DNA of 1,421 nt from Naegleria gruberi. Taxonomy: Eukaryota. Position 1 is the first letter of the stretch. Each line of letters opens with the position of its first letter. The translations under genes and the position numbers were made by a program. The stretch lies in NCBI GenBank assembly GCA_000004985.1, contig GG739428.1, one strand, 5' to 3'. Below the pieces are notes generated by a model, which worked only from the letters and a program-made list of their open reading frames with translations, was not told the DNA's origin and did no database searches. Below, one piece after another: positions 1 to 1,421 of this stretch.

Positions 1-380
1 AATTTGATTATAAATATAGTGACTTTCGGAATTCACTTTTTTTACATTCGATTTAGACGATTTAATGGTAGTATAATTGAGTATACAGGTCTATTATAAA
101 GAATATATTGGGTAGAAACGGGTTAATTTTTTTAATCGATTTTATGCATATATTACAAGAGGAATATAATGTTTTACAGTATTTGGTTATTTTAAAATCG
201 GCTAGAAATGAAGTGAGGACAAAAATTTTAAAAAATTTCAGTCAAAAATATGGTCATATTTATCAGTAAACTATATCTTGTGGATTTATATATTAATAGA
301 TTTTTCGTTTTTGACACCTCTATTGTAAACACTATAAGATTATTTATTTATAGTTATTTCCATATCTACTTTCGAGTTCA
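1..380. other. AT-rich intergenic (non-transcribed?) spacer, about 25% G+C
   Basis: Hand count of 1-60 gives 15/60 G+C. It contains A/T tracts and an A-tract palindrome, aaaattttaaaaaattt, at about 221-238. There is no ORF longer than a few dozen codons and no rRNA- or tRNA-like conservation. Confidence 0.5.
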
Positions 381-410
381 TCGACCCCCCCGAAATGTCT
401 GAACTTCAGT
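360..410 (+). promoter_or_regulatory. Candidate RNA polymerase I core promoter / transcription start region at the AT-to-GC composition boundary (speculative)
   Basis: This is inference only. A sharp boundary (C7 run at 385-391) is followed by the 11-bp palindrome ctgaacttcag (399-409) and aggatcct (430-437), about 870 bp upstream of 18S. Pol I promoters are lineage-specific, so no consensus can be matched by eye. Confidence 0.15.
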
Positions 411-616
411 TCCTAACCTTGCGGACAGCAGGATCCTAAGGGATTACCCTCATCGAGGGTATCAACGCCCTTCGGAGCCCCCAATGGGTCAACCACCCGT
501 TGGGGCCTGCTGTTCACACCGGGGGTCGGTAACCCTCCCCGCCTGATGAAGGGCGGTGGGCACCCCCAGCCCTTGCGGCTGGGAGCCAAGGCAGCGCGTA
601 ACTGCGGGGCGCTGCT

Positions 617-683
617 AACCAACCAACCAAACCTGACCCGCCACCAGCCAACCAGCCCACCAGCCAGCCAACCACCAGCCACG
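617..683. repeat. Low-complexity C/A-rich microsatellite-like tract: (AACC)n followed by degenerate CCAGCC(A/C)A repeats
   Basis: Directly seen: aaccaaccaaccaaacc at 617-633, then ccaccagccaaccagcccaccagccagccaaccaccagccacg at about 641-683. This stretch contains almost no T on the + strand. Confidence 0.7.
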
Positions 684-898
684 CGCCCTCTGGCCCACCC
701 AGGCCACGCGTGCGGTCGAGGCACCCTACAGCCAGCCGGCAGAACCCACGGCCATTCCCACGGCCAACGGTCCAACCCGCTGCCAGTCCTGACCCCAGGG
801 CTGTCCAGGGAGCCTCCCGCGTGTGTGACCCGGGAGCCTAGGAGGGCCCCCCAACCGTCCGGCCCAACCGCTGCCCCTGGGGCCGATTCAGATACCTC

Positions 899-992
899 AA
901 CCGCAGCCTTTTGGGCTGCCCACAGCCAAACCGCAGCCTTTTGGGCTGCCCAGATCCTACCAGCCTACCACCGCAGCCCTTTGGGCTGCCCT
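899..992. repeat. Tandem array of 3 hairpin-forming repeats with core CCGCAGCC(T/C)TTTGGGCTGCCC
   Basis: Directly seen: the core occurs at 901-922, 931-952 and 971-992 (ccgcagccttttgggctgccc twice, then ccgcagccctttgggctgccc). Start-to-start spacing is 30, 30 and 40 bp. Copies 1 and 2 extend to near-identical 30-mers, aaccgcagccttttgggctgccca(c/g)a. Each core is an inverted repeat, GCAGCC-ttttg-GGCTGC, with a 6-bp stem. Confidence 0.8.
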
Positions 993-1060
993 ACCACCAC
1001 AGCCAGCGAAGCCTGGACCGAGGGGAAACCCTTGACCCGGGACGAGCCAGCTGTTTTTCA

Positions 1061-1257
1061 ATATTGATTACCCGCATTAAGCGGGAAACCCTCGCAAGAG
1101 GAACCCCATACCTCAGAGACCCAAACGATTCATTCGTTTAGGCTCAAATCGAGTTCATAATGGCAAACGGATGGATAGCCAGTAGGTGGTGCAAACCAAC
1201 GAACGCTTGAAATCCAACCGGAGCGCAAACAAGGTAAAACTCGTTTTGCTCCAGTGA
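1061..1257 (+). other. 18S-proximal 5' external transcribed spacer (5' ETS)
   Basis: It lies immediately upstream of, and is contiguous with, the mature 18S 5' end at 1258. Composition is mixed and stop codons are present in all frames. It contains a perfect hairpin, cccgc-attaa-gcggg, at 1071-1085. Its function is inferred from position; no transcript data are available. Confidence 0.6.
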
Positions 1258-1421
1258 TACCTGGTTGATCCTGCCAGTACTATATGCTTGTCTCAAAGCC
1301 TAAGCCATGCAAATGTAAGATCAATCATATGCGGTTTCGGCCGTGTATAATGATAGTCTGTGGAAGGCTCATTATAACAGTTATACTCCTAGCCACTGGA
1401 AAGTTTACAAGGATACCACCG
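1258..1421 (+). rRNA. Nuclear small-subunit (18S-type) rRNA gene, 5' end only (partial; the gene continues past the window end)
   Basis: Directly seen: 1258-1278 tacctggttgatcctgccagt is the universal eukaryotic SSU 5' terminus. It is followed by tatgcttgtctcaaag (the U3 box-A pairing region, conserved), gccatgca, ggctcattataacagttat and aaggata. An archaeal SSU would start attccggttgatcctgccgga and a bacterial one agagtttgatcctggctcag, so this is eukaryotic nuclear. Several otherwise conserved positions are substituted, for example agtactatatgc instead of AGTAGTCATATGC and aaagcctaagcc instead of AAAGATTAAGCC. Confidence 0.9.

Follow-up and report, generated by a model that had tools for sequence, protein, structure and literature searches.

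The 1,421-nt stretch of DNA analysed here (the window) very probably carries the start of a functional Naegleria small-subunit (SSU) rRNA gene whose sequence is normal for the genus. The window most likely represents a part of the Naegleria (Heterolobosea) rDNA unit that reads from an AT-rich non-ribosomal spacer (NRS) through a GC-rich repeat block and a conserved proximal 5′ ETS into a functional SSU gene, of which it includes the first 164 nt. This 5′ end belongs to an already known kind of gene, and the product would be an ordinary 18S rRNA. The bases that deviate from the consensus represent the normal, fixed sequence of the genus, most of them single-stranded; one deviation is a compensated change from G-C to A-U at the base of helix h6, and another removes a bulge from helix h3 and leaves a C·U mismatch. 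An earlier interpretation made from the letters alone (the sequence-only reading) had called the gene a functional SSU gene rather than a pseudogene and had regarded its differences from the consensus as real features of a lineage. The first of these claims was supported by a complete gene in a near-identical contig, by invariance and by covariation, and the second by the invariance of the differences across 22 contigs. The same reading had considered the sequence unusually divergent and the organism poorly sampled. Neither view was sustained: what the window shows is the usual start of a Naegleria SSU gene, invariant across loci, and two related loci are tied to named species by protein identity. 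All window coordinates given below are on the plus (+) strand.

The identity of the 3′ part of the window was established with the Rfam model of eukaryotic SSU rRNA (RF01960, SSU_rRNA_eukarya). Positions 1258-1421 matched model positions 1-151 with a score of 101.1 bits (E = 1e-27), well outside the range of chance and above the gathering score of 50, and the match began at position 1 of the model. The matched 164 nt end only because the window ends. We annotated 1258..1421 as the 5′ end of the SSU (18S) rRNA gene on the basis of this match and of identity to two public contigs, L021 and L019. A string search located TACCTGGTTGATCCTGCCAGT at 1258-1278, ACTATATGC at 1279-1287, GCTTGTCTCAAAG at 1286-1298, CCTAAGCCATGCAAATGT at 1299-1316 and GGAAGGCTCATTATAACAG at 1362-1380, as well as AGCCT at 1297-1301 and AGGCT at 1365-1369 (placed at ~1364-1368 by the sequence-only reading). 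All of the strings that had been quoted from the window were present, within 1 nt of the positions given for them.

Relatives of the window were found in public contigs. A 31-mer (ATATGCTTGTCTCAAAGCCTAAGCCATGCAA) that covers two departures from the consensus matched 18 metagenome contigs, and in BLASTN comparisons these 18 shared with the window the SSU start plus 190-510 nt upstream of it, at 83-96% identity. Four further contigs (L019-L022) were found by an exact match to a 173-aa open reading frame (ORF) of the window. Over the first 164 nt of the SSU, L001 was identical to the window and nine loci differed at one bulge base, while the other loci differed in the tip of the h6 hairpin, some of them also at one other variable base. 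The three departures from the consensus were invariant across all 22 metagenome or read-assembly contigs (18 + 4). A 28-mer matched none of the viral contigs scanned, and a search of full-text literature with a 20-mer (TCTCAAAGCCTAAGCCATGC) found no paper.

Four of the contigs are of the same type as the window. L021 was 100% identical to window positions 15-1421, L019 and L020 showed 99.44% identity to all 1,421 nt, and L022 showed 99.4%. The SSU gene of L019 is complete and intron-less (2,020 nt at 1428-3447; 1,393 bits, model positions 1-1831). It is followed by an ITS1 of 33 nt, between the SSU end at 3447 and the 5.8S start at 3481, and by an LSU gene that starts at 3773, covers model positions 1-2641 of 3401 and stops at the contig end. 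The public data hold two haplotypes of the same species, one represented by the window and L021 and the other by L019, L020 and L022. The two haplotypes differ at eight sites only (31, 110, 136, 226, 317, 326, 392 and 1146), seven of which lie in the AT-rich spacer (31-392), one in the ETS and none in the SSU.

That the window belongs to a Naegleria rDNA unit appears highly likely, as judged from features of its relatives: their primer sites, the type of intron, the lengths of the ITS and the identity of the intron proteins. Genus-specific ITS primers for Naegleria have been published (PMC7951808), and among the first 18 loci the forward primer had an exact site in 13 and the reverse primer in nine. 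Both primers matched L019 exactly and delimited a 409-bp amplicon, which by arithmetic leaves ~114 nt for ITS2. The same assay yields 408 bp from N. philippinensis and 381 bp from Vahlkampfia, where ITS1 measures 28 bp, and an ITS1 of 33 bp with a 5.8S of 175 bp is characteristic of the N. gruberi/australiensis/italica/philippinensis group (PMC3167841). An ITS1 of 33 nt was also present in L015 and L016.

In seven relatives, an intron interrupts the SSU at S516, precisely where GTCTGGT adjoins GCCAGCA. The intron was ~1.31 kb long in L001, L002, L009 and L013, all four of which contained PF05551-type endonuclease sequence, and a GIR1 branching ribozyme was recognized by Rfam in two of them, L009 and L002. 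The twin-ribozyme intron Nae.S516 has been described (PMC1464144, PMC3679873) and is optional: 21 of 70 strains carried it, and ~70% of isolates are without the intron (PMC1464144). The ORF of the L001 intron encodes a His-Cys box homing endonuclease (PF05551, E = 5e-38) that is 98% identical to an N. italica protein and 94% identical to that of N. philippinensis; a comparison of this endonuclease with PDB sequences gave no match. The L002 endonuclease was 100% identical to an N. andersoni protein over 245 aa. In L003, L012 and L018, the S516 intron measured 379 nt (SSU ~652-1031) and was without GIR1 or an endonuclease-sized insert. We liken these three introns to the single case of an intron with NaGIR2 only, the 375-bp intron of N. 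byersi NG597 (PMC1464144).

Species-specific oligonucleotides were also compared with the loci. An N. fowleri ITS primer had no match in the loci with up to four mismatches (<=4), and the N. australiensis NRS primers had none at the same threshold, their sites lying outside the region covered by the window-type contigs. A putative N. fowleri 18S probe sequence likewise had no match in the loci with <=4 mismatches. N. fowleri is unlikely to be the source species. A sequence presumed to be that of probe NAEG1088 matched 12 loci exactly; this result was not used as evidence.

The 164 nt of SSU in the window are too conserved to tell close genera apart, and in a subgroup of the loci (L003, L004, L012, L013 and L018) the ETS was of another kind and some Naegleria oligonucleotides aligned with 1-2 mismatches. 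Both observations would fit a close vahlkampfiid outside Naegleria (e.g. Willaertia) with an identical SSU 5′ end. However, the window ETS was 96% identical to that of L001, the locus whose endonuclease shares 98% identity with that of N. italica, and L019 combined exact sites for both primers with a 33-nt ITS1 and a 409-bp product, as against 28 bp and 381 bp in Vahlkampfia (PMC3167841). We consider a vahlkampfiid source very unlikely. It is even harder to credit, and in our estimate extremely improbable, that the DNA comes from a novel, fast-evolving and poorly sampled eukaryotic lineage. Such a lineage could explain the departures from the Rfam consensus, and the link to the genus rests on hallmarks of relatives; yet those relatives have Naegleria primer sites, Nae.S516-type introns and endonucleases that are 98-100% identical to named proteins, the ITS1 and amplicon lengths equal published Naegleria values, and Naegleria rDNA, including several complete circular elements, is already in the literature. 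The sequence-only reading had stated that a near-identical 18S gene from a well-characterised organism would make the sequence an ordinary one for its lineage. The Naegleria hallmarks of the relatives effectively supply that organism.

The SSU structure was mapped with RF01960 on the window and on the 5′ domain of the near-identical locus L016. Helix h1 (1261..1277; CUGGU/GCCAG with loop UGAUCCU) had 5/5 standard pairs and was invariant. In the SSU model, h3 and h4 draw their 5′ strands from GCUUGUCUCAAAG, the candidate U3-pairing box of the sequence-only reading. The h3 strand (ACUAUAUGCU, 1279..1288) has lost a bulged C and carries a G-to-C change: the Rfam alignment of AGUAGUCAUAUGC with AGUACU-AUAUGC places a 1-nt deletion at model position 25, an unpaired bulged C, and the G-to-C substitution in the same stretch. 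This alignment agrees with the substitution plus 1-nt deletion that the sequence-only reading had recognized in the first changed stretch. The strand pairs with AGCGUAUAUU at SSU 680-689 of L019, where nine of the ten positions form standard pairs and the tenth is a C·U mismatch. Since AGCGUAUAUU was identical in every locus that holds that region, the mismatch is lineage-fixed and uncompensated.

Downstream of h3, the Rfam structure line placed the 5′ strand of h4 (GUCUCAAAG) at 1290-1298, the h4/h5 internal loop CCUAA at 1299-1303 and the 5′ strand of h5 (GCCAUGC) at 1304-1310. The h4 and h5 strands are those of the consensus, and none of the h5 pairs was flagged as non-canonical in the Rfam alignment of the L016 5′ domain. 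Their distant partner strands, GGCAGCAGGCGC and GGAGGUAGUGACAAGCUAU, were present in L019 and L021. The second departure, from AGAUUAAG to AGCCUAAG (AUU to CCU), fell within the h4/h5 internal loop, which is unpaired.

Helix h6 (1313..1361) was identified by pairing in the alignment, and the minimum-free-energy fold agreed with it. Covariation across loci supported a lineage-specific apical extension with a UUCG loop at 1327-1348: three of its pairs were altered on both sides, and the loops were UUCG, UCAC, UUAC and GCAA. In an 18-sequence alignment with six distinct rows, 99.2% of the cells in h1 and h6 were paired, compared with 20-46% when the 3′ partners were shifted by 1-3 columns as a control. 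GCAUGU and GCAAAU were separated by three substitutions, with no insertion, in the Rfam alignment. The change from GCAUGU to GCAAAU, together with that from CUGCGAAUGG to CUGUGGAAGG, holds the sole true compensation, the basal h6 pair A1313-U1361 in place of the consensus G-C, and the remaining changes, in GGAAGG and AUUAUA, are at single-stranded positions. CUC at 1368..1370 supplies the 5′ side of a long-range helix of 3 bp; its GAG partner lies within CCGGAGAGG of L019, and 3/3 pairs are intact. Two outer pairs of the h7 stem were non-canonical in the model alignment. Of the helices that the sequence-only reading had wanted checked, h1 formed in full, h4 and h5 kept consensus strands with their distant partners present, and h3 kept 9/10 pairs with one C·U.

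The one candidate compensatory helix named by that reading, between AGCCU (1297-1301) and AGGCU (1365-1369), was rejected. The two segments occupy non-partner positions in the SSU model and are 5-nt reverse complements consisting of invariant bases, so they offer no covariation, and the bases are assigned elsewhere. In the Rfam structure, G1298 closes h4 and CCU belongs to the h4/h5 internal loop; at the other segment, AGG is single-stranded and CUC (1368-1370) pairs with the distant GAG. The consensus pairing of GCCAU with AUGGC, from which the proposal started, was also mistaken: GCC and UGC of h5 pair with a distant GCAGGC.

The structural comparison bears on whether the rDNA copy in the window is degenerate or a pseudogene, with a drifted 5′ end. 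Signs of decay might be seen in the three clusters of departures from the pan-eukaryotic consensus, in the uncompensated C·U in h3 and in the two non-canonical outer pairs of h7. Against this, the same bases did not vary among 22 independent contigs, which come from different samples and species, the near-identical L019 has a complete SSU with full coverage of the model as well as 5.8S and LSU, none of the eight within-species differences fell in the SSU as compared with seven in the spacer, the h6 extension covaried, and the distant helix strands were all present. A pseudogene is excluded by the completeness of the gene, its invariance, its covariation and the way the polymorphisms are distributed, and we assign practically no probability to it.

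Upstream of the functional Naegleria SSU start, the window falls into an AT-rich zone (1-~395), a GC-rich zone (~396-1000) and a zone of ~45-47% GC (~1050-1257) that runs up to the SSU at 1258. The GC content was 22-25% at positions 1-350 and 64-73% at positions 450-1000, with an abrupt step from ~23% to ~70% near 380-450. By its composition (22-25% GC), the segment 1..395 was annotated as the AT-rich NRS of the rDNA unit. Among the loci beyond the window-type contigs, L009 alone aligned to this segment, with ~70% identity, which matches the reported differences in NRS between Naegleria species (PMC11008152, PMC10586121). The abrupt GC step could raise the suspicion of a chimeric assembly at the AT-rich/GC-rich junction, but the junction was shared base-for-base by four independent contigs from four different samples, which excludes a chimera, L009 was colinear across it (~70%), comparable GC steps occurred at other Naegleria loci, and the probability left to this explanation is negligible.

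The segment 396..1000 was delimited by composition and repeats as a GC-rich (64-73%), C/A-rich repeat block. Repeats of the CCAACCAGCC type stand in tandem at 617-681 of this block, and at 899-998 there are three direct repeats of ~30 nt, each with a GCAGCC-UUUU-GGGCUGC hairpin. The block may be distal 5′ ETS, in which case it would be transcribed, or spacer. A block of 64-79% GC upstream of the SSU, preceded by a lower-GC spacer, was also present in L002, L008, L009, L014, L015 and L016, where it stopped ~200-300 nt before the SSU. These six related loci have the profile AT-rich, GC-rich, ~45% GC in common, and the sequencing of the N. gruberi plasmid likewise revealed stretches rich in G+C (PMC5805870). 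The sequence-only reading was right about the composition, an AT-rich spacer followed by a GC-rich upstream region (22-25% versus 64-73% GC), but what it had found an odd pairing of spacer and ETS is an architecture common to related Naegleria loci. A 10-mer (TCGAGTTCAT) that occurs twice, with starts at ~372 and ~1150, was dropped as a candidate feature; by estimate rather than computation, this is about the chance expectation for 1.4 kb.

The 173-aa ORF (546..1067) is a stop-free stretch of the GC-rich block. The exact protein is annotated as a gene on four public contigs, a Pfam search with it gave no match, and the underlying DNA was poorly conserved between species. The ORF is probably spurious, an artefact of stop-poor GC-rich sequence. 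An unassignable ORF has also been reported upstream of the 18S gene in the circular rDNA element of N. gruberi (PMC5805870).

The last ~200-260 nt before the SSU form the conserved part of the ETS in 12 loci. In the window, we delimited the conserved proximal 5′ ETS at 1060..1257, by 83-96% identity in these 12 loci. A comparative fold placed hairpins at 1071-1085, 1090-1101 (with a GNAA loop in all loci), 1141-1155 and 1220-1252. The last of these directly precedes the SSU and stops 5 nt short of the mature 18S 5′ end. RNAalifold predicted 48 pairs in the ETS, 10 of which were kept through double-sided changes among the 12 Naegleria-type loci.

All Naegleria rRNA genes have been reported to reside on ~4,000 copies of a circular extrachromosomal element (CERE), each with a single cistron, and to be absent from the chromosomes (PMC5805870, PMC11008152, PMC10586121). 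By analogy with the rest of the genus, the rDNA unit of the window would lie on such a multicopy circular plasmid. A CERE was defined as a closed circle of ~13.6-16 kb with one rDNA cistron and an NRS. The window-type contigs (<=6.5 kb) do not close, and the circle was seen in the relative L002. This contig (14,161 nt) has an exact terminal overlap of 127 nt, which gives a circle of 14,034 bp; the CERE of N. gruberi EGB is 14,007 bp (PMC5805870). The single rDNA cistron of L002 contains a twin-ribozyme intron at S516, and the contig seems to be a complete CERE of the N. andersoni type assembled from a metagenome.

Changes relative to the eukaryotic consensus were also observed beyond the end of the window, in the 530-loop (L016 8695-8756; L019 SSU 634-696). 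All Naegleria-type loci have GGAGGAAAAGUCUGGU|GCCAGCACCCGCGG in place of the consensus GGAGGGCAAGUCUGGUGCCAGCAGCCGCGG. This alters the 530-loop pseudoknot, a universally conserved element, on both strands, and in the standard register the alterations do not compensate each other by Watson-Crick pairing. The two altered strands flank the S516 intron site. One could envisage that the window comes from a Naegleria species with an unsequenced rDNA plasmid, that the h3 bulge loss with its C·U, the ETS hairpins and the 530-loop strands are co-evolved processing or decoding features, and that the AT-to-GC switch at ~380-450 marks the Pol I start region. We regard this combination of proposals as unlikely.

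Since the window resolves to the ordinary rDNA of a free-living amoeba from a thoroughly studied genus, it has little discovery value. It provides a worked example of how 18S deviations from a consensus should be judged, namely against the lineage's own sequences and the true helix partners. A by-product is the comparison of the Naegleria proximal 5′ ETS with its conserved, covarying hairpins, which could aid the mapping of pre-rRNA processing or the design of CERE-based Naegleria vectors.

The closest comparison is with the SSU model itself. The window shares with RF01960 the same 5′ terminus and the canonical arrangement of h1, the 5′ strands of h3-h5, h6 and the CUC/GAG helix. It differs from the model in the loss of the bulged C of h3 with one C·U, in the loop CCUAA instead of AUUAA, in an A-U instead of a G-C pair at the h6 base, and in a 15-nt apical extension of h6. 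As far as the compared sequences indicate, the differences in h3, the h4/h5 loop and h6 are fixed in the genus.

At the level of the whole unit, the system for comparison is the Naegleria CERE, as known from N. gruberi NEG-M/EGB, N. fowleri, N. australiensis, N. jadini and N. pringsheimi. In these elements, one SSU-5.8S-LSU cistron, strongly conserved between species, stands beside a repeat-rich, species-variable NRS that has a lower G+C content than the rDNA and holds G+C-rich stretches (PMC5805870, PMC11008152, PMC10586121). The window loci similarly combine strongly conserved rDNA with a variable spacer. The Nae.S516 intron (NaGIR1, NaGIR2 and His-Cys box endonuclease) is found in relatives at exactly S516, a position outside the window; the nearest intron-bearing relative, L001, is N. 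italica-like, whereas the window-type SSU, as seen in L019, is without the intron. A more distant analogue, cited as such in the CERE papers, is the rDNA episome of Entamoeba histolytica, in which rRNA genes are also located on extrachromosomal circles (PMC5805870, PMC11008152). Those circles belong to an unrelated lineage (Amoebozoa) and are described as palindromic in the title of a reference that PMC5805870 cites.
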